Shown one piece after another: positions 14,259 to 26,086 of a stretch of DNA of 64,000 nucleotides (the stretch's first letter is position 1; every line of letters begins with the position of its first letter). The translations under genes were made by a program, and so were the position numbers. The stretch spans positions 429,526 through 493,525 of the forward strand of contig CAZJBI010000001.1 of assembly GCA_964544445.1 (NCBI GenBank). Reading direction: 5' to 3'. The notes below the pieces were generated by a model. It worked only from the letters and a program-made list of their open reading frames with translations. It did not search any database and was not told where the DNA came from. Source of the stretch: an uncultured Rhodohalobacter sp. GTDB taxonomy: Bacteria; Bacteroidota; Rhodothermia; Balneolales; Balneolaceae.

Positions 14259-15356
14259 CTAAACCGAGACTTCATCCTCAAGAAATGAGAGAAGCAGCTC
14301 TTCGGCTTTACTTGTAGAGACCAGATTCTCAGTCTCGTTCGGGCTTGCGATATCCCCTGTACGATATCCCTGTTCAAGAAAGGTGTCGATTGCCGACTCA
14401 ATATCAGAAGCAGCCTCTTCCATATTCAGAGAGAACCTGGCAAGCATAGCGGCTGAAGCAACGGCTGCGAGTGGATTAGCAACACCTTTCCCCGCGATAT
14501 CGGGTGCGGAGCCGTGAACAGGCTCGTAAAGTCCGTTTTCACCTCCAAGACTGGCGGATGGAAGCATCCCCAGTGAGCCGGTTAGCATGGATGCTGCGTC
14601 ACTCAGGATATCCCCGAAAAGATTTCCAGTGAGCATAACATCGAACTGTTTCGGATCTCTGATGATCTGCATTGCGCAGTTATCAACCAGCATGTGCGAA
14701 AGCTCCACGTCGGGGTACTCTTCTGCAACCTCAATTACGGATTTCCGCCACATTCGTGAGCTTTCCAGGACATTGGCTTTGTCAACGGAGCAGACCCGGC
14801 CGTCACGTTTTCGGGCAGCATCGAAGGCCGTTCTGGCTACGCGCTGTACTTCAGAACGGCTATATTTCATGGTGTCAACTGAAAATGGGTCGCCATTTTC
14901 TTCAGAGGTGTATCTCGGTTTCCCAAAATAGACACCACCTGTTAATTCACGGACAATCAGAATATCGGTACCGTCAATCACGCTCTTTTTCAGGGAAGAA
15001 GATTCCGATAGGGCAGGATAAACGTTAATTGGACGCAGATTGGAATAGACGCCAAGCTCTTTGCGCATTTTCAATAAAGCGGCTTCCGGGCGCAGTTCGG
15101 CGCTGAGGTTATCCCATTGAGGGCCACCAACTGCGCCCAGAAGCACAGTCTTGTGTTTTTTGCAAACATCGATGGTTTCGTTTGTAACAGGTACGCCATG
15201 GTTTTCATAGCTGATACCGCCAAAATCACGCTCTTCTGTCTCAATTGAAACATCATATCGAGCGCAGGCTTTTTGTAAAACGCGAACGGCAACGGAGGTG
15301 ACTTCAGGTCCGATTCCGTCTCCGGGCAGGGTAACAATTGTCTTTGATTTCATCAT
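14259..15356 (-). CDS. leuB: 3-isopropylmalate dehydrogenase
   Basis: PGDGIGPEV, GAVGGPQWD, RELTGGVYFG, NLFGDILSD, EPVHGSAPDIAG; operon context. Confidence 0.97.
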   Translation of the reverse strand: MMKSKTIVTLPGDGIGPEVTSVAVRVLQKACARYDVSIETEERDFGGISYENHGVPVTNETIDVCKKHKTVLLGAVGGPQWDNLSAELRPEAALLKMRKELGVYSNLRPINVYPALSESSSLKKSVIDGTDILIVRELTGGVYFGKPRYTSEENGDPFSVDTMKYSRSEVQRVARTAFDAARKRDGRVCSVDKANVLESSRMWRKSVIEVAEEYPDVELSHMLVDNCAMQIIRDPKQFDVMLTGNLFGDILSDAASMLTGSLGMLPSASLGGENGLYEPVHGSAPDIAGKGVANPLAAVASAAMLARFSLNMEEAASDIESAIDTFLEQGYRTGDIASPNETENLVSTSKAEELLLSFLEDEVSV

Positions 15357-15931
15357 TGTACAGCGGGCATCATTCCGTTTTGTCGTGCATATTCAAAAAT
15401 ACCGCCGGCGTGAACAATATCTGCTACGCTTCCAAGCGGTTTAATTTTGTACTCTTTTTCCTGGGTTTGATTGATGAGTAGGTGTTGTTCCTGGTCAATT
15501 TCCAATTCATCCCCGGTACGAATTTCTTTGCTGAGGTCTTCAACACTTTCAAACGGAATCAGAAAGCCGCCGTCAACAGAATTGCGGTAAAAAATCCGGG
15601 CATACGAGGGAGAGATGATAGCCTTGATTCCGGCGATTTCAAGGCATGCGGGTGCATGTTCACGGGAGGACCCACATCCGAAGTTGTCGCTGGCTACAAT
15701 GATGCTGAAGTCACTTGCAGTCTGTCCATCTTTAGTAAGCGGAATGTTTCCCTCCGGCAGCCCCGACTCTTCTGACGGGACTCCTGAAAGAGCATATTTA
15801 CCATAAAGCTTTCGTTCTTCAGGGTCTTCGAGGCTGTAAACCAGATGTGCAGCCGGTATAATTTGATCGGTATCAATGTTCTTTCCCAATACAAAAGCTT
15901 TTCCTTTGATGGGTTTCTTTTCTTTACTCAT
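15353..15931 (-). CDS. leuD: 3-isopropylmalate dehydratase small subunit (plant/HacB-like type)
   Basis: NIDTDQIIPA, NFGCGSSREHA, YARIFYRN. Confidence 0.93.
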   Translation of the reverse strand: MSKEKKPIKGKAFVLGKNIDTDQIIPAAHLVYSLEDPEERKLYGKYALSGVPSEESGLPEGNIPLTKDGQTASDFSIIVASDNFGCGSSREHAPACLEIAGIKAIISPSYARIFYRNSVDGGFLIPFESVEDLSKEIRTGDELEIDQEQHLLINQTQEKEYKIKPLGSVADIVHAGGIFEYARQNGMMPAVQ

Positions 15932-16016
15932 GTTAAAAATAGGTTCAATAAAGTTGTTGAATTAATGTGTTTATTCTGATCAGGGCTTGATCCTTTTAAA
16001 GGTGTGATCAACTTCC

Positions 16017-16051
16017 GTCTCATATCTCATGTCTCAAGACTCATGTCTAAA
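16017..16051. repeat. five degenerate heptamer repeats overlapping the leuC stop codon
   Basis: GTCTCAT ATCTCAT GTCTCAA GACTCAT GTCTAAA. Confidence 0.8.
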
Positions 16052-17360
16052 TCACCGTTTCCTGAATAAATACCCGGGGATCCGTAATGACCCCTGTAAC
16101 AGCAGATGCCGCAACCGTGTAAGGCGATGCGAGGTAGACCTGGGATTTCTTGGACCCCATTCGTCCCGGATAATTACGGTTGGTGGAGGAGATACAGACC
16201 TCCTCATTGTTGAGGCGCCCGAATGTATCGGCAGGACCGCCCAAACATGCCGCACAAGATGCATTTCCAATATTGCATCCGGCTTCTTTAAAAATTTCAA
16301 TCAACGGTGTGCCTGAGATGGTTTCGGTTTCAAGTCCGCGGGCGATTTCGGTGGTTGCCGGTACGATATAAGTGTCCAGCTTTACTTTATTGCCGCGAAT
16401 AATTTCAGCTGCCGCTTTAAAGTCACTAAGCTTCCCGCCTGTGCATGAACCAATGTAGGCGCGGTCGAGATATGTTCCTTCAACCTCTTCGGCAGTGGCC
16501 TTGTTGTCGGGACTGTGTGGTTTTGCAACCATGGGAACAAGCTCTTCAAGATTATAGAAGTGTTCGCTGTGGTACTCGGCATCCGGGTCGCTGTAAACTT
16601 TTGTGTAAGGCTTATCTGTACGAGCTTGCACATACTCATCCGTAATTTCGTCGGGTTCAACTACACCGTTTTTCCCGCCGGCTTCGATGGCCATGTTGGT
16701 AAGCGTCATTCGATCTTCCATGGTAAGGGCTTTAACTCCTGCGCCCGCAAATTCCATTGCACGGTACGTTGCTCCATCAACACCAATATCACCGATAATC
16801 TTCAGAATAATATCTTTTGCCATCAGGTAGGGCGGGAGGGATGCGCCACCAAAAACAAACCGCATGGTTTCGGGCACTTTCACCCAGAGTTTACCGGTTC
16901 CCATAATAAAGGCTGCATCGGTATTGCCAATACCTGTTGCGAACTGGCCGAATGCTCCGGCTGTGCAGGTGTGGGAGTCGGTACCAAACAGCACTTCACC
17001 GGGACGAGTGAACCCTTCTTCAGGCAGGGCGACGTGGCAAACGCCTTTGTACCGGTCGGAACCCACGTCATAAAAATTTGGGAGATCCTGTTCAGCTGCA
17101 AAAGCCCTAAGAATATCGACATTCCGGTTTGCATATTTATCTTTGGTGAAAATATAGTGGTCGGGAATAATCACAACTTTTTCTTTATCCCAAACGCGAG
17201 CATTTTCTCCGAACTGTTTATTAAAAATGCCGATAGTTGGAGGGCCGCATACGTCGTGAGTCATTAAAATGTCTACATCCACCCAAACGGTATCTCCTGC
17301 TTTTACGGCATCGCGTCCGCTGTGATTGGCAAGTATTTTTTCGGTTAACGTCATTCCCAT
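16047..17360 (-). CDS. leuC: 3-isopropylmalate dehydratase large subunit (plant/HacA-like type)
   Basis: THDVCGP, PDHY, GVCH, GTDSHTC, IGSCTGG, CAACLG, STNRNYPGRMG. Confidence 0.95.
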   Translation of the reverse strand: MGMTLTEKILANHSGRDAVKAGDTVWVDVDILMTHDVCGPPTIGIFNKQFGENARVWDKEKVVIIPDHYIFTKDKYANRNVDILRAFAAEQDLPNFYDVGSDRYKGVCHVALPEEGFTRPGEVLFGTDSHTCTAGAFGQFATGIGNTDAAFIMGTGKLWVKVPETMRFVFGGASLPPYLMAKDIILKIIGDIGVDGATYRAMEFAGAGVKALTMEDRMTLTNMAIEAGGKNGVVEPDEITDEYVQARTDKPYTKVYSDPDAEYHSEHFYNLEELVPMVAKPHSPDNKATAEEVEGTYLDRAYIGSCTGGKLSDFKAAAEIIRGNKVKLDTYIVPATTEIARGLETETISGTPLIEIFKEAGCNIGNASCAACLGGPADTFGRLNNEEVCISSTNRNYPGRMGSKKSQVYLASPYTVAASAVTGVITDPRVFIQETVI

Positions 17361-17448
17361 AATTAAAACTGCTGTTATTTATTGATTGATATTAAAAATA
17401 GTGCGTTGGATTCTGTTTTATCAGGTTTGAAATGTATTCAAACAGTTT

Positions 17449-18642
17449 TCATCCTCCGGCGGCAAATGTTCGGTCCGGGCTTTGGTTTGAATAATTTGTT
17501 GTGGCCATAATGTGTATCAGGTCCTGGTCCTCAACGGTTTTTTTCTCATCGGCAAGTTTCGTGACGGTTTTATACACGCTGTTAAGATCCTCCTTGTTCA
17601 AATAGTAGCCGAGATCCTCAAGTTTCTTGCACAGTGCAAAGCGGCCTGAATGCTTGCCGATTACAATCTTATTGCAGGTAATTCCGACCGATTCGGGCGT
17701 CATGATTTCATAGGTCAGCGGATTTTTTAAAACACCGTGCTGATGAATACCCGCTTCGTGGGCAAATGCATTATCTCCAACAATTGCCTTGTTGGGCTGT
17801 ACACCTTTGCCGGTAATTTGTGCAAGCATTTGACTGGAGGGAAAAATCTCTTTCGAATTTACGGATGTTGTGTAGTCCATGCTGTTCTTCCGTGTTTGTA
17901 CGGCCATCACTACCTCCTCAAGAGATGCGTTACCTGCCCGCTCTCCGATTCCGTTAATGGTGCATTCAACTTGTCGGGCGCCGTTCTGAACCGCCATCAG
18001 TGAGTTGGCTACTGCGAGGCCCAGATCGTTGTGACAGTGGGCGCTGATCACAGCCTGATCGATATTTGGGATTTCATCTTTAAGCTTTTTGATTAACTCC
18101 CCAAACTCCCATGGCAACGCATACCCCACCGTATCGGGCACGTTGATTGTTGTGGCACCGGCTTCTATAACGGCAGTAAAAATTTCAACTAAGAAATCAG
18201 GATCACTCCTGGACGCATCTTCGGCAGAAAATTCAACATCATCCACGTGTTGTTTGGCGAACTCAACAGCTTTCACCGCCGATTCCAGAACTTCTTCTCT
18301 GGATTTCTGAAGCTTGTATTTCAAATGAATATCGCTGGTGGCAATAAAGGTGTGAATTCTTGGCTTATTTGCAGATTCCACAGCTGATACAGCCCGTTCC
18401 AGATCGATTTTCCGGGTTCTGCAAAGAGCAGCAACGGAACTGTTTTTTATGGTTTTTGCAATCTCTTTTACCGTTTCGTAATCACCGTCAGATGCAATTG
18501 GAAAACCGGCTTCCATCACATCAACACCTAATTTTTCGAGCTGTAGAGCAAGACGCAGTTTTTCCTGCTTGTTCATGCTATAGCCCGGCGATTGCTCACC
18601 GTCCCGAAGTGTGGTATCGAAGATGGTAATGTGATTGTCCAT
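17449..18642 (-). CDS. leuA: 2-isopropylmalate synthase, short form without the C-terminal regulatory domain
   Basis: [31 protein letters not shown]; 397 aa. Confidence 0.92.
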
Positions 18643-18702
18643 GGTTTTGTGTTGTTTTGTGTTATGTATTACAGGCGAATTTTTTGTGCGGATTTCCTAA
18701 TC

Positions 18703-20322
18703 TTAGGTGGAAATTCCCGCTTCTGCCTGTTTGATGTCGATTCGTTGTTTTGCTTTACTGTTTTGATTCATTAAAAAATAGATTACTCCTTCCGAAAGGG
18801 CTTTCCAGCTGGCATCAATAATATTTTCCGATACACCAACGGTACCCCAGCTCGATCCTTCCTTGGCAGAGTCAATTAATACGCGCACTTTAGCACCCGT
18901 GCCGTCTTTTTCATTCAAAACGCGCACTTTATAATCCTGCAGGTGCATGGTGTTTATTTCGGGGTAAAATTCGCAAAGAGCTCTTCTCAATGCGGCATCC
19001 AAGGCATGAACAGGTCCGTTCCCTTCGGCGGCGCTCAGTTCCATCTGTCCATTAACGCAAACCTTAATCGTAGCTTCAGAACGGGATACGCCATCGGCAT
19101 TACGCTCCATGATTACCCGGAAACCTTCAAGGCTGAAAAAATCTGGCGCGTTGTTTGTGAGTTCTTTCACCAATAATTCAAAGGATGCCTCGGCAGCTTC
19201 AAATTGGTAGCCTTCGTTTTCCAGTTTTTTAAGTTCAGTCACAATTTTTGAACTCTCGGCAGATCCTTTATCAAATTCAAACCCAAGCTCCTCTGATTTA
19301 TAAGAGACATTACTTTTTCCAGAGAGATCAGACACAAGAACTCTTCGGCTATTGCCAACTATTTCGGGGCGTATATGTTCATACGTCTGTTCATTTTTTA
19401 TGACCGCACTCACGTGTACGCCGCCTTTATGGGCAAAAGCACTTTTACCTACGTAGGGTTGTTTATTGTCGGGGATGAGATTGCCGAGTTCACTCACAAA
19501 TTTCGAAAGCGTGGATAAATGGAGCATTTGATCCTCAGGGATACAGCTGTATCCCATCTTCAGCTGAAGGTTGGGGATAACCGAGCAGAGATTTGCGTTT
19601 CCACACCGCTCTCCATAACCATTAATAGTTCCCTGTACGTGTACAGCACCTGCATTTACCGCTGCAACTGCATTAGCTACGGCCATTTCCGAATCATTAT
19701 GAGAATGAATACCAACCGGGGTATTTACGTTGCTGCAAACCTTGTTTACAATTTCGGTTATTTCATGCGGGAGTGTACCGCCGTTGGTATCGCACAATAC
19801 AAGTACATCAGCCCCTGCAGCTGCAGCAGACTGAAGTGTTTTGATTGCGTAATCCGGATTATTTTTATACCCGTCAAAAAAGTGTTCGGCATCATATATA
19901 ACTTCTTTACCGTGCTCTTTTAAAAACGAGACCGAGTCGGTGATCAGCACAAGATTCTCTTCAGGTGTTATCTTGAGAGCCTCCGTTACGTGGAGCAGCC
20001 AGGACTTTCCAAACAGAGAAACAGCAGGGGTGCCGGCTTTTATGAGTGCCTGCAGATTGGGATCATCAGCAGCTTTATTGCCGGAACGGCAGGTGCTCCC
20101 AAAGGCAACAATTTTTGCGTGCTGAAAGCTGTGAGCGGCCGCTTTTTCGAAAAACGCCATGTCTTTCGGGTTAGAACCGGGCCAGCCGCCTTCAATATAG
20201 TCAATACCGAATTCATCAAGTCGTTTGGCAATTCGGAACTTATCTTCAGCCGAAAAAGAGACTTTTTCTCCCTGCGTGCCGTCGCGTAATGTAGTATCAA
20301 ATATGTGAATGCGTTTTGGCAT
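18703..20322 (-). CDS. cimA: citramalate synthase
   Basis: DTTLRDGTQGE, GGWPGSNPKD, YDAEHFFDG, HKGGVH; C-terminal GNGPV regulatory domain present. Confidence 0.9.
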   Translation of the reverse strand: MPKRIHIFDTTLRDGTQGEKVSFSAEDKFRIAKRLDEFGIDYIEGGWPGSNPKDMAFFEKAAAHSFQHAKIVAFGSTCRSGNKAADDPNLQALIKAGTPAVSLFGKSWLLHVTEALKITPEENLVLITDSVSFLKEHGKEVIYDAEHFFDGYKNNPDYAIKTLQSAAAAGADVLVLCDTNGGTLPHEITEIVNKVCSNVNTPVGIHSHNDSEMAVANAVAAVNAGAVHVQGTINGYGERCGNANLCSVIPNLQLKMGYSCIPEDQMLHLSTLSKFVSELGNLIPDNKQPYVGKSAFAHKGGVHVSAVIKNEQTYEHIRPEIVGNSRRVLVSDLSGKSNVSYKSEELGFEFDKGSAESSKIVTELKKLENEGYQFEAAEASFELLVKELTNNAPDFFSLEGFRVIMERNADGVSRSEATIKVCVNGQMELSAAEGNGPVHALDAALRRALCEFYPEINTMHLQDYKVRVLNEKDGTGAKVRVLIDSAKEGSSWGTVGVSENIIDASWKALSEGVIYFLMNQNSKAKQRIDIKQAEAGIST

Positions 20323-20354
20323 ATGTGTTTGTGTTTGAAATTTGATGCTTTGAA

Positions 20355-20475
20355 ATCCCCCTTTGAAGGGGGGATGACTAAACGCGTTAAGCGATTAGTC
20401 TGGGGGGATGTTTAAGCACTTAACTTGTGACACCCCTCCCCCCCGAAATGTCGGGGACTCCCCTCAAGGGGAGAG
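20355..20475. repeat. GC-rich composite palindrome (REP-like) between ilvC and cimA
   Basis: Hairpins TCCCCCTTTGAAGGGGGGA, GACTAA...TTAGTC, CCCCGAAATGTCGGGG, CTCCCCTCAAGGGGAG, plus GGGGATGT/ACACCCC pairing. Confidence 0.8.
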
Positions 20476-20479
20476 TTAC

Positions 20480-22062
<1,583 letters not shown>

Positions 22063-22108: not shown

Positions 22109-23890
22109 TCAGCACTCCTCGTCTGATTCTACCATTTCATTTAAAGCCGCACCGGAAGGAACCATGGGGTAGCAGTTCTCTTCGGCCACTACGCGAAAGT
22201 CCATCAATACCGGACCATCGTTAATCTCCATGGCTTTTTTAAGTGCGTCTTCCATTTCGGCCGGTGTCTCGGCGCGTAACCCTGTAGCACCGTAACACTC
22301 CGCCATTTTTACGAAATCGGGATTGTTGGATCCAAAAACCGATGAGCTATATCTTTTGTTGTAGAACAGCTGCTGCCACTGCCGAACCATTCCAAGACAA
22401 TTGTTATTCATGATCACGATTTTTACCGGTATTTTGTACTCAACTGCAGTAGCAAGCTCGTACGATGACATTTGAAATCCGCCGTCCCCTGTAATGCAAA
22501 TTACATCACGATCAGGTTCGGCGAGTTTGGCACCAATGGCAGCCGGGAACCCGTATCCCATGGTTCCGAGCCCGCCGGACGAAATCCAAGATCGGGGGTG
22601 GTTGTACTGATAGTGCTGAGCGGCCCACATTTGGTGCTGGCCTACATCGGTGACTACAATGGCGTTTCCTTCAGTAATCTCCGAAATCATCTTCACCATC
22701 CGCTGAGGGTAAATTTCCGTTTCAGATTCCGGAACTTTCAGTGGATGATCTTTTTGCCAGCCGTGAATGGTATCCCACCAGTCAGTTATTTCCGGGGGAG
22801 TGGCTTTTTCGTGGATGCCTGGTAATACATGTTTCACATCACCAACAATTGGCACCTCCACTTCTACATTTTTTCCGATGCAGGATGGGTCAATATCGAT
22901 ATGAATTTTTCGTGAGTTGGGTGAAAATCCATCAAGACGGCCCGTAACACGGTCATCAAATCGTGCTCCAACAGCAAGTAGTACATCGCATTCGGTCATC
23001 GCCATGTTGGCATACCATGTGCCATGCATGCCCAGCATTCCAAGTGATTGAGGTTTACTTTCGGGAAAGCCACCGAGCCCCATCAAGGTTGTGGTTACGG
23101 GAATATTCATTTTTTCAGCAAATGCCGTCAATTGCTCCCATGCTTCTCCGGCAATCACTCCTCCGCCTGCGTAAATCAGGGGCTTTTTGGCATTGCTCAG
23201 CATCTCAGCTGCTTTTGTTATCTGAGGTTGATGACCGTGGAGAGTTGGCTTGAAACTTGGGATCTCGACTTTTTTCAAGCCCGAAAAGTGACCTTTTGTA
23301 TTGAGCATATCTTTTGGAAGATCTACTAAAACGGGGCCCGGCCTTCCGTTTGTGGCAATATGAAACGCTTCTCGGAGTACGCTCTCAAGCTCATTTACAT
23401 CGCGTACAAGATAATTTTGCTTTGTGATGGGGCGAGTAATACCAACAATATCTGCTTCCTGGAAGGCATCGTTTCCAATCACGCCAGTTGGTACCTGACC
23501 TGTGAGTACAACAAGTGGAATGGAGTCCATCATTGCCGTTGCAATTCCTGTTACCGTATTCGTCCCCCCGGGACCTGATGTTGCCAAAACAACGCCCGGT
23601 TTTCCCGTTGCCCGAGCATAGCCGTCGGCCGCGTGGGATCCTGCCTGTTCATGGCGAATGAGGACGTGATTGAGGTCATGATTATCAAAAAGAGCATCGT
23701 AAACCGGTAAAACTGCTCCGCCCGGATAACCAAAAATCGTATCCACATCCAGATCGGCAAGAGTTTTTATGAGGATTTCGGCGCCATTATAGCTTTCCGC
23801 GTGAGTATCCGGAGCCGGATTCTTGATAGCGTGCAAAGACGGAGTGGATCCAAGGTTCTTGGCGGTAGAAGCAGATTTATTTGATTTCAT
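22109..23890 (-). CDS. ilvB: acetolactate synthase large subunit
   Basis: FGYPGGAVL, RHEQ, TSGPG, RFDDRVTG, DVGQHQMW, GDGGFQM, GMVRQWQ. Confidence 0.98.
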   Translation of the reverse strand: MKSNKSASTAKNLGSTPSLHAIKNPAPDTHAESYNGAEILIKTLADLDVDTIFGYPGGAVLPVYDALFDNHDLNHVLIRHEQAGSHAADGYARATGKPGVVLATSGPGGTNTVTGIATAMMDSIPLVVLTGQVPTGVIGNDAFQEADIVGITRPITKQNYLVRDVNELESVLREAFHIATNGRPGPVLVDLPKDMLNTKGHFSGLKKVEIPSFKPTLHGHQPQITKAAEMLSNAKKPLIYAGGGVIAGEAWEQLTAFAEKMNIPVTTTLMGLGGFPESKPQSLGMLGMHGTWYANMAMTECDVLLAVGARFDDRVTGRLDGFSPNSRKIHIDIDPSCIGKNVEVEVPIVGDVKHVLPGIHEKATPPEITDWWDTIHGWQKDHPLKVPESETEIYPQRMVKMISEITEGNAIVVTDVGQHQMWAAQHYQYNHPRSWISSGGLGTMGYGFPAAIGAKLAEPDRDVICITGDGGFQMSSYELATAVEYKIPVKIVIMNNNCLGMVRQWQQLFYNKRYSSSVFGSNNPDFVKMAECYGATGLRAETPAEMEDALKKAMEINDGPVLMDFRVVAEENCYPMVPSGAALNEMVESDEEC

Positions 23891-23966
23891 ATTTCCTCAT
23901 GGGTGGTTTTTCCCCACCGGAGGTCAAAAATAAATCAGCAAAAATGATTTGGTTCTAACCCCCGGC
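23891..23966 (-). promoter_or_regulatory. putative translational attenuator: alternative hairpins over the ilvB initiation region
   Basis: GCCGGGGGUU (23966-23957) can pair with GACCUCCGGU (23925-23916); alternatively CCUC-C-GGUGG/CCACC-CAU-GAGG sequesters GAGG 4 nt before the ilvB AUG. Confidence 0.6.
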
Positions 23967-23973
23967 AGCTTAT

Positions 23974-24147
23974 TTAGCTAATAATTAGGTTTAGAATTAG
24001 AATTCCGGAAATTAGGATAGATAGAATAATCAGAAGGTCGGATATACTGATTACGTTTGAAGCAATAATTGAACGAGTAGCTGGAATGGAAATGAAAGAA
24101 GAGAGTACAAAAGGAAATGCAACATCACGATTTTTGCTGATAGCCAT
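23974..24147 (-). CDS. putative ilv-leu operon leader peptide (57 aa)
   Basis: MAISKNRDVAFPFVLSSFISIPATRSIIASNVISISDLLIILSILISGILILNLIIS; 15 of the last 20 codons are Ile/Leu, five of them CTA. Confidence 0.75.
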   Translation of the reverse strand: MAISKNRDVAFPFVLSSFISIPATRSIIASNVISISDLLIILSILISGILILNLIIS

Positions 24148-24250
24148 AGCTTTAGCTGGCACGGAAGTTCGGCTTCCATCGGCATTTAAAAATCTATGTG
24201 TGTTTGCGGTAGACAATTTGTAATCTGTTGTTCAATAATCGCTTGCAAAA

Positions 24251-24279
24251 AACATAGATATAGATAGATCTTGTGTCAA
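24251..24279 (-). promoter_or_regulatory. sigma70-type promoter for the leader/ilvB operon
   Basis: Minus strand TTGACA, 17 bp, TATGTT. Confidence 0.65.
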
Positions 24280-24409: not shown

Positions 24410-26086
24410 ATGAATAAACTCAACAAATTTAGCTCAAGACTCACGGAAAATCAGGCGCAGGTTGGCTCAAAAGCAATGCTCTATGCAGCGGGGTTGAGCG
24501 AGGATGACATGAAAAAGGCCCAGGTGGGAATCGCAAGCACGGGCTGGGACGGTAATCCATGCAATATGCATTTGAACGATTTAGCTGCCGTGATTAAAGA
24601 AAGTATATGGGAGAGTGGCCTTGTTGGGTTTGTGTTTCACTCCATTGGAGTGAGCGATGGAATTTCGATGGGAACACAGGGAATGAAATTTTCCCTGCCA
24701 TCGAGGGATATAATTGCGGATTCGATTGAAGTTGTAATGAGTGCCCAGTGGTATGATGCTAATATATCAGTAGTAGGGTGTGATAAAAATATGCCGGGAT
24801 CGGTGATGGCAATGGCCCGGCTGAATCGTCCCTCTATAATGGTGTACGGGGGTACTATCCGGCCGGGGAATCTGAATGGCCAAAAGCTCGATATTGTATC
24901 TGCCTTTGAATCTTATGGCCAGTATCTGTCAAAAGAGATTGACGAGGAAGAGATGAACAAGGTGTTGAAGCATGCCTGCCCCGGCGCGGGTGCCTGCGGT
25001 GGAATGTATACTGCCAATACCATGGCTTCTGCAATCGAAACGCTGGGAATGAGCGTGCCGTATAGTTCATCGATCCCGGCTACCCATCAGGAGAAAATTA
25101 ATGAGTGTAAAAATGCTGGAAAAGCCATACTGAATCTGCTTGAACACGATATTAAGCCGCGTGACATCATCACCCGAAAGTCCCTTGAAAATGCCGTAGC
25201 GATCATTATTGCACTGGGCGGATCGACCAATGCAGTGATGCATATGCTGGCTATCGCCAGGGCAGCTGAGGTTGACTTTACAATTGATGACTTTCAGGCT
25301 GTGAGTGATCGCACACCGTTCCTGGCCGATCTGAAACCAAGCGGAAAATATGTGATGGAGGATCTGTACAATGTTGGCGGAGTTCCGGCAGTACAGAAAT
25401 ACCTTTTTGAAGAAGGATTTTTACACGAGGGATGTATGACGGTTACGGGCAAAACGCTGGAGGAGAATGTAAAAGATCTGCCAGGCTTTCTGGAGGAGCA
25501 GAATGTAATTCATCCCGTTTCAGATCCGGTGAAAAAAACGGGCCATCTGCAGATTCTGTATGGAAACCTTTCCCCGGAGGGAAGTGTAGCCAAAATTACC
25601 GGTAAGGAGGGGACACAATTCACAGGGCCTGCGAAAGTTTTTGAATCGGAAGAAGACTGTTTAAATGGAATTCAAAATGGCATGGTGCAAAGCGGTGATG
25701 TGGTGGTGATTCGCTACGAAGGCCCCAAAGGCGGTCCCGGAATGCGTGAAATGCTCTCCATAACGGCGGCAATTATGGGTGCCGGACTTGGAAATGATGT
25801 AGCACTGATAACTGACGGCCGTTTTTCCGGGGGAACCCATGGTTTTGTGATTGGACATGTAACACCGGAAGCACAGCTCGGGGGAACTATTGGGCTGCTG
25901 AAGAATGGTGATGTGATTACCATCAACGCAGACGATCGGATTTTAAATGTAGACTTAACTGAATATGAGATCGAAGAGCGCAGAAAAAACTGGAAAGCAC
26001 CGGCGCTCAAACATCAGAGCGGGATTCTGTACAAATATGCGAAATCGGTTTCTACGGCGAGTGAGGGGTGTGTGACGGATATGTGA
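24410..26086 (+). CDS. ilvD: dihydroxy-acid dehydratase
   Basis: [47 protein letters not shown]. Confidence 0.98.

Follow-up and report, generated by a model that had tools for sequence, protein, structure and literature searches.

An isoleucine/leucine-rich leader with alternative RNA helices upstream of ilvB in a Balneolaceae bacterium and its probable action on translation initiation

The DNA analysed here (the window, 64,000 nucleotides in all) comes from the genome of a Balneolaceae member, a salt-water bacterium; the homologues of its ilvB with 80-97% identity are recorded as Balneolaceae bacterium or Rhodohalobacter, and those with 76-78% identity as Fodinibius. The upstream of ilvB, which encodes the large subunit of acetolactate synthase (22109-23890, minus strand, as are all elements of the switch given below), contains a leader open reading frame (ORF) of 80 codons with a most likely UUG start (23974-24216) and four RNA segments capable of alternative pairing. 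Segment 1 (24004-24016, with an alternative register at 23996-23987) lies in Leu-Ile-Ser-Gly codons (codons 67-71) and is complementary to segment 2 (23954-23966), which begins 7 nt 3' of the leader stop. Segment 3 (23914-23929) can pair with segment 2 in the predicted ON state or with segment 4 (23895-23906) in the predicted OFF state. Segment 4 contains GAGG (23898-23895), which is separated by 4 nt from the ilvB AUG, and it is not followed by a U tract; an inner helix of 6 bp in the loop of hairpin 2:3 (23932-23950) is variable among relatives. A preliminary description of this DNA had proposed an Ile/Leu leader with competing helices, no terminator and output at the ilvB start. This outline is supported by the conservation of the element, the bias in its codons, covariation and constrained folding, whereas the start codon, the missing segment 1 and the role given to the Shine-Dalgarno (SD) box had to be revised. 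The checks suggested there (alignment of upstream regions, covarying stems and masked folding) were run, and none of the computational outcomes that would speak against it was found. The element is real and conserved, and it is very likely a ribosome switch that senses isoleucine and leucine. In the following, f and g labels stand for families and genera, L numbers for loci, and "genus" for the window's own genus.

The regulatory codon run comprises the last 20 leader codons (23977-24036), of which 15 specify Ile (8) or Leu (7), and the final five Leu codons are all CTA, as had been described. With nine CTA or ATT codons in its last 15, the leader ranked top of 147,314 open 15-codon windows preceding a stop genome-wide. 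The share of CTA among the Leu codons of the last 15 positions was 118/126 in the genus, 45/45 in g26, 22/22 in f7, 78/83 in f5 and 25/30 in f3; the coding genes at these loci had a share of 0.5-2.4% and the genome as a whole one of 8%, and within the leader CTA is restricted to the last 20 codons. CTA accounted for 16/92 Leu codons in other Rhodothermia and 16/69 in other classes, where CTT is commoner, and ATT made up 42/50 and 44/49 of the Ile codons, respectively. Synonymous divergence (dS) in nine close pairs was 0.065 in the last 16 codons vs 0.85 in ilvB, which makes these synonymous sites about 13 times more conserved. The upstream part of the leader showed a ratio of nonsynonymous to synonymous divergence (dN/dS) of 0.54 vs 0.03 in ilvB, with a dN nine times that of ilvB. 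On these alignments, the constraint at the 3' end of the leader is a signal at the nucleotide level and not protein conservation; pairing with segment 2 explains a part of it, and the CTA bias persists in families with a different segment 2. Valine took only 1 of the 435 last-15 codons in the genus and is probably not sensed there. The leader carries the enrichment in codons for pathway products that marks the classical ribosome-mediated attenuators; its ORF closes with the cognate codon run and is followed by no terminator, as in the Ms5788A type of attenuator. The accessible text on the Salmonella leu attenuator gives CUA as its control codon (PMC1183508).

These values also bear on the idea that the leader is an ordinary small membrane protein gene lying by chance before ilvB. 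The hydrophobic C-terminus and a gene call in four database records would agree with it, but the ninefold excess of dN upstream and the 13-fold conservation of synonymous sites at the 3' end are not what such a gene would show, the sequences are unrelated between classes and yet constant in position and composition, and no match to the leader was found in Pfam or NCBIfam. We regard this idea as already largely refuted and scarcely credible.

The leader had originally been started at an ATG (24145-24147), from which the frame runs for 57 codons to 23974 and contains 15 Ile, 8 Leu and 3 Val. The counts are correct, but the start is not conserved: an in-frame ATG occurs in only 10 of 28 genus leaders, scattered between codons 18 and 51, and it is lacking at that place in L002, whose ilvB is 97% identical. 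The ATG was rejected as the start. The frame is open further upstream to a TTG at 24216, which makes the former start codon 24 of the longer frame. In the alignment of the 29 genus loci with sufficient upstream DNA, this TTG occupies a single column in 28 loci and lies 2 nt off in the 29th; it is in frame with the leader stop and open to it in 29/29, giving leaders of 70-81 codons, and the remaining two frames are open in 0/29. Three of four database homologues of the leader start at the same residue as the UUG frame. Similarly, a TTG about 30 nt after the -10 box is the first start in 15/15 g26 loci, and a TTG start at 70-74 codons was found in 7/7 f7 loci. The remaining groups mostly use ATG or GTG at about 45-66 codons, and leaders are long throughout (about 45-83 codons). 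The comparison makes the UUG at 24216 the most likely start, and the annotation is corrected to a UUG-started ORF of 80 codons that is nameless in the databases searched. In five loci of other classes (L225, L226, L235, L222 and L224), the distance from an ATG to the leader stop is exactly 57 codons despite seemingly unrelated N-termini, and leader length seems to be conserved among them.

Leaders of this length could also act through the nascent peptide, which would set the stall via the ribosomal tunnel or the membrane-insertion machinery, by the logic known for MifM and VemP, and the switch would then report more than tRNA charging. Besides the length seen everywhere, a second hydrophobic window of 19 residues (mean hydropathy at least 1.6) placed at least 22 residues before the stop in 27/29 genus leaders, and the dN/dS of 0.54 upstream, which is below neutrality, are in line with such a role. 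However, the second hydrophobic window is missing from two genus leaders, among them that of the window itself (1.39), the Chlorobiaceae-like leaders have a polar N-terminal part, the constraint at the 3' end sits on synonymous sites, and the enriched residues are exactly the amino acids made by the downstream genes; a peptide-driven stall is improbable on this balance.

The stem that had been noticed 7 nt after the leader stop is present in the minimum-energy fold, where it extends to 14 bp plus the 6-bp inner helix, and hairpin 2:3 as a whole reached -29.3 kcal/mol (z -3.5) with 0/200 shuffles as good. The alternative hairpin over GAGG folded at -14.0 kcal/mol (z -2.0, 6/200 shuffles), without a U tract, and the 1:2 fold at -16.0 kcal/mol (z -1.8). 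Both helices of the original proposal, 2:3 and 3:4, were thus recovered, but the third, 1:2, which uses a segment within the regulatory codons, had been missed in it. Three helices (1:2, 2:3 and 3:4) that exclude one another, with the second segment right after the leader stop, are the arrangement of classical attenuators and the layout of the E. coli trp-type attenuator. The pairing was followed in an alignment of 39 of the 45 Balneolaceae loci, from which six near-duplicates were excluded. The paired cells amounted to 95.9% for 1:2, 95.1% for 2:3 and 86.3% for 3:4, as compared with 32-54% in slid controls, and changes on both sides of a pair were seen in 4, 4 and 10 cells, respectively (reached in 1, 0 and 0 of 500 shuffles). 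Furthermore, a synonymous change in segment 1 accompanies changes in segments 2 and 3 in L001, L002 and L048, and across families the helices persist while their sequences differ. Helix 1:2 was better than synonymous shuffles (p<=0.05) in 15/30 genus, 15/15 g26, 6/7 f7, 7/21 f5 and 1/1 f6 loci; at the family level it was significant in f1 and f7.

Some features of segment 3 and of the 3:4 loop were seen alongside. The loop (23913-23906 in the window; alignment columns 134-142) has an A-rich AAAnnTATA-like sequence in most Balneolaceae rows, kept beyond what pairing needs; the copy in the window is A-rich but diverged. An internal promoter within this loop was considered by eye and dropped for its 14-nt spacing. 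An AUG within segment 3, in frame with ilvB, occurs in L146, L152, L159 and L032 and not in their relatives, and is probably incidental.

The leader and the hairpin were found in 82 of the 85 Balneolales loci that have this ilvB type and an assembled 5' end, and the three without them are truncated by a contig end or interrupted by an N gap. They are also present in 17/19 loci of other Rhodothermia orders and in 15/16 loci of other classes (ilvB 54-59% identity), including Chlorobiaceae-like genomes; the ilvB of L225, L226 and L235 is 89-96% identical to a Chlorobaculum fragment and that of L222 86% identical to an Ignavibacteriaceae one. For these distant leaders, the best upstream stop with an Ile/Leu/Val-rich run before it was chosen and then accepted on inspection; a similar rule was passed by 2-3 of 400 random upstream regions of the window genome. 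No leader was seen in four other-class loci with a distant ilvB type (two of which stop short of the operon start), at the Chlorobiaceae-like locus L223, or in families f10 and f17 of other Rhodothermia, either at ilvB (L172 and L173) or at ilvD (four genomes). Among seven named reference loci, obtained from an ilvB search over 1/64 of the contig collection that returned distant taxa, L103 (Rhodothermus) has the leader, L052 and L053 have none, and five end inside ilvD. The covariance model R1 matched 12 of 101 genomes, once each and only in g1, g26 and f7; its blanks carry no meaning because it misses leaders seen otherwise in f3-f6. In a scan of the window's own genome, at a threshold that missed even the ilv leader, none of the candidates for a His, Trp, Thr or Phe leader was convincing.

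Another type of operon is found in 20 Balneolales loci (L183-L202) with a distant ilvB (44-48% identity) in the order ilvD-ilvB, and all 20 have a short Ile/Val-rich leader followed by a hairpin and at least 7 T. This leader lies 66-103 nt upstream of ilvD and is a classical attenuator candidate, with no Rfam match in the two loci scanned. The distant ilvD-ilvB operon may have entered from outside and may have displaced the long leader. This other operon type is relevant for the view that hairpin 2:3 has no part in sensing and acts only in RNA stability or in re-initiation, by holding the stop of the leader close to the AUG of ilvB. Hairpin 2:3 is indeed the equilibrium fold and the sole helix present in every locus; however, this view leaves the CUA/AUU run, the frozen synonymous sites and the conserved 1:2 and 3:4 helices unexplained, and a classical Ile/Val leader with a terminator stands in for the element in 20/20 loci of the other operon type. 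It is therefore given very little credence.

The effect of ribosome position on the start of ilvB was monitored by constrained folding of the window RNA. Masking 9-15 nt after the leader stop brought the probability (P) of helix 3:4 to 0.91-1.00, and stalls 3-14 codons upstream gave 0.04-0.37. Because masking behind the stop yields 3:4 and upstream stalls do not, a ribosome at the stop is predicted to be a robust OFF trigger, as had been proposed, and helix 1:2 would rather have a kinetic role or serve in pausing. When segment 2 was masked, the cost of opening the start region (-12 to +13 around the AUG) rose in the genus by a median of 7.0 kcal/mol (1.6 in the null); the medians were 6.1 in f7 (null 0.7), 3.6 in f5 (0.8) and 2.8 in g26 (0.9). 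The rise exceeded 2 kcal/mol in 25/30 genus, 11/15 g26, 7/7 f7, 6/8 f5, 4/4 f3, 2/2 f4 and 6/7 other Rhodothermia loci, the loci counted being those with a gene start within 130 nt. It was larger than in at least 19 of 20 spacer shuffles in 20/30, 7/15, 7/7, 6/8, 2/4, 1/2 and 3/7 loci of the same groups, a control that is weak where only 6 nt can be shuffled. In addition, helix 3:4 ends at most 12 nt from the gene's AUG, or covers it, in 29/30 genus, 15/15 g26 and 7/7 f7 loci (51/52), as obtained with a 52-nt local fold window that favours such ends. An OFF structure over the initiation region, as in the Ms5788A type, was thus found in silico for Balneolaceae and f7.

The intrinsic terminator that forms helix 3:4 in classical attenuators has no counterpart in the window, where no terminator-like site occurs at this place, and at least 6 U in the 8 nt after 3:4 were seen in 0/82 Balneolales, 0/17 other Rhodothermia and 2/15 other-class loci. 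An SD 4-mer is present at 12.5% of 1221 gene starts in the window genome vs a background of 5-6%, and GAGG is missing in several g26 loci. The hairpin that had been drawn over GAGG does stand at the start, but GAGG itself is not kept in several relatives; since SD use is minor and the box is not kept, the blocking is likely to concern the whole start region and not the SD box.

Where the gene lies far from the switch, a short ORF often begins behind the latter. Its stop overlaps the AUG of the gene in L035, L036, L138, L140, L157, L165 and L229; in the four f5 loci among these (L035, L036, L138 and L140, genus g5) it has 18-19 codons of unrelated sequence with the stop over the ilvB AUG. In about as many other loci the short ORF ends 8-98 nt before the gene or runs past its start. 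As a separate observation, the stretch from the switch to ilvB contains another upstream ORF, with 2-4 Cys codons, in L143, L144, L148 and L149, and in L165 and L167 (25 codons in genus g16).

These results together suggest that ilvB is controlled by ribosome-driven translational attenuation through a four-segment switch and that its output in this lineage is translational, a reading that we hold to be probable, with moderate confidence. When leucine and isoleucine are plentiful, charged tRNA-Leu(UAG) and tRNA-Ile would let the ribosome reach the leader stop and cover segment 2; alternatively, segment 1 would capture segment 2 during transcription. With segment 2 taken by either route, segment 3 would pair with segment 4 and the ilvB initiation region would be blocked (OFF). 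When leucine or isoleucine is short, the ribosome would stall on the CUA/AUU run and cover segment 1 but not segment 2, so that 2:3 forms and the start stays open (ON). The OFF state would be a co-transcriptional one, most likely locked by Rho-dependent polarity in the untranslated ilvB, by which the downstream genes would be silenced as well. As the naked RNA settles into 2:3 at equilibrium, OFF would require both the ribosome at the stop and such a lock. The genome encodes a Rho N-terminal domain, and the first 90 nt of ilvB contain 28 C and 14 G, which is at the 97th percentile of 1221 gene starts.

Several observations weigh against this mechanism. In the naked window RNA, 2:3 forms with P 0.99 and 1:2 with P 0.00, and the window's own 1:2 duplex gave p=0.135 against synonymous shuffles; at p<=0.05 this helix was not better than the shuffles in any locus of f3 (0/5), f4 (0/2) or g31 (0/1) and was so in only 2/14 loci of other Rhodothermia (the Rhodothermales side). 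The covariation comes from few columns among related genomes and cannot be read as a probability, and the triple change may represent one event or two. The switch upon masking segment 2 was at most 2 kcal/mol in 5/30 genus and 4/15 g26 loci, and only 18/30 genus and 6/15 g26 loci had a start that was harder to open in the free RNA than in the stalled state by a margin above 1 kcal/mol. The proximity of 3:4 to the AUG of the gene was seen in only 8/21 f5 loci (20/21 when the first AUG is taken), 0/5 f3, 5/17 other Rhodothermia and 6/15 other-class loci, and in such groups the gene may start 100-300 nt beyond 3:4. A start-blocking output is accordingly much less evident in the folding results outside Balneolales. 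The C-richness at the 5' end of ilvB exceeds that of the divergent ilvD in 57/61 loci, but it is equalled by ilvN and missing in other classes, and for these reasons it lends the Rho lock weak support.

Alternatively, the same sensor might work primarily through termination without a U tract, helix 3:4, or the RNA freed when 2:3 cannot form, serving as a signal for pausing or Rho loading, with the closeness to the AUG being secondary. Outside Balneolales, both in the rest of Rhodothermia and in other classes, helix 3:4 often takes the form of a compact, GC-rich hairpin distant from the gene (by 97-291 nt in 14 loci); at least 5 U occur in the 8 nt after it in 4 of 15 other-class loci, two of which have at least 6. 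The loop and the downstream RNA have more C than G in most Balneolales groups, Rho is present, and the reversion of the naked RNA to 2:3 fits a decision made once, during transcription. On the other hand, no such C over G skew follows the leader in other classes, segment 4 tracks the AUG across families although its spacing and sequence vary, the opening of the start switches by more than with shuffled spacers, and several lineages have short relay ORFs whose stop falls on the AUG of ilvB. Termination as the primary output thus appears rather unlikely, and translational attenuation at the ilvB start is kept as the favoured mechanism. Its extension to the phylum is tentative: an ancient class of terminator-less attenuators may exist in Rhodothermia, Chlorobia and Ignavibacteria-like bacteria, with a leader of 45-83 codons whose length is functional, a four-segment relay acting on initiation, little reliance on SD pairing and short coupling ORFs that would pass the signal on to genes that have moved away, and a classical attenuator with a terminator may have taken its place in genomes that acquired a foreign ilvD-ilvB operon.

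The leader is preceded by a sigma-70-type promoter, TTGACA-17-TATGTT (24251-24279, minus strand), with a predicted transcription start near 24244 and about 28 nt between that start and the UUG. This promoter, already named in the preliminary description, agrees with the consensus at 10/12 positions; its weight rests on conservation among relatives because chance sites are as frequent in shuffles (3 sites of such quality found vs 3.5 expected). The -35 and -10 boxes are aligned across the 29 genus loci, and the pattern matches in 15/15 g26 and 7/7 f7 loci. A short G(C/T)GAT word occurs 3' of the -10 box in most genus loci (24244-24232, minus strand, in the window). Contigs from RNA libraries cover the leader in 4/4 runs of one study, with upper ends at 24209-24226 and none beyond 24226; one joins the leader to ilvB (23833-24222) and another stops at 23955. 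They agree with both the predicted promoter and read-through but show nothing further, as strand, level and ends are invisible in them, and they were given no weight for the mechanism.

Downstream of ilvB, whose first 90 nt are the C-rich stretch mentioned above, the genes ilvN, ilvC, cimA, leuA, leuC, leuD and leuB (14259-22062, minus strand) would complete the operon, co-transcription from ilvB to leuB being inferred from gene order. The divergent ilvD (24410-26086, plus strand) is not under the switch in the window genome. The product of leuA (17449-18642, minus strand) is a protein of 397 aa whose match to a 516-position model is limited to positions 4-386. Long LeuA proteins carry leucine feedback in their C-terminal part; this part is lacking from the product in the window, so control at the level of the leader may weigh more. 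The IlvB protein has a polar and poorly conserved N-terminal extension of about 30 residues (23790-23890, minus strand, C-rich in the RNA), and its family match starts at residue 35.

The likeness of the element to known systems was examined. The ermC translational attenuator also has a four-segment layout. In it, according to the accessible text, a stalled ribosome rearranges hairpins and frees a downstream start, as proposed here, but the stall comes from an antibiotic and the nascent peptide and not from uncharged tRNA (10.1101/834739). The same text describes the mycobacterial polycysteine sORF attenuator Ms5788A, which has a cognate codon run at the 3' end, a start freed by stalling and no terminator, and for which downstream genes are proposed to follow by polarity; it differs in that the codon run pairs with the SD region, the ORF is leaderless and of 90 nt, and the signal is cysteine (10.1101/834739). 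At the present locus the run pairs with segment 2 and not with segment 4, and the signal for leucine and isoleucine would pass through two further segments behind an ORF of 80 codons that has a 5' untranslated region and a UUG start. The Salmonella leu and Corynebacterium ilvB-II attenuators, as far as their accessible descriptions go, share the leader with cognate codons, CUA for leucine, segment 2 after the stop and competing helices (PMC1183508; PMC10272879); here 3:4 has no U tract and lies on the start codon, and the leader has 80 codons as against 15-17 in ilvB-II (PMC10272879). The LEU element before actinobacterial leuA is similar in its Leu-run leader, the absence of a terminator and a predicted block of the ribosome-binding site, and in the text available its Leu codons pair with the SD box at the base of a pseudoknot and its authors doubted leader translation as the mechanism (PMC1262725). 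No pairing of Leu codons with an SD box as a base stem was found at this locus, nor was a LEU-like pseudoknot seen, although none was sought and the folding methods do not predict pseudoknots. The ilvB-OMG and Leptospira ilvB motifs, predicted attenuators in the accessible part of the source, likewise have ORFs before ilvB that vary in length and are enriched in codons for branched-chain amino acids (PMC10272879). The element thus resembles Ms5788A in action on a classical four-segment plan and lacks a defining feature of each of these and of the LEU element.

No Rfam family, be it T-box, ppGpp riboswitch or leader families, was recognised: the three chance matches in the window lay far below the gathering score, and 20 related loci gave none. 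Six lineage names are absent from the supplement of PMC10272879, which may list accessions only; the accessible text of PMC7797042 does not mention the lineage, and that of PMC2965389, PMC4833913 and PMC5737381 holds nothing relevant, although the supplements of the latter two could list members. The literature search, mostly without subscription papers, returned no description of the element in Balneolales, Rhodothermus or Chlorobia. A 2010 study by Lopatovskaya and colleagues in Mol Biol reportedly predicts attenuators in Bacteroidetes/Chlorobi and could pre-empt a part of the finding.

In the literature found, amino acid leaders acting on translation initiation are shown for mycobacterial cysteine, and branched-chain leaders are described with terminators. 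If true, the present case would be a second, independent and far wider one of an amino acid-sensing translational leader. The presence of the long leader beside the classical terminator version in the same family and for the same pathway offers a natural comparison of outputs. The case also bears on how leaders can be long and yet free of conserved sequence, how an OFF state is held against the equilibrium fold and how a start is blocked in genomes with few SD genes. Genetic tools exist for Rhodothermus and Chlorobaculum, and loci near named records of both have the element.

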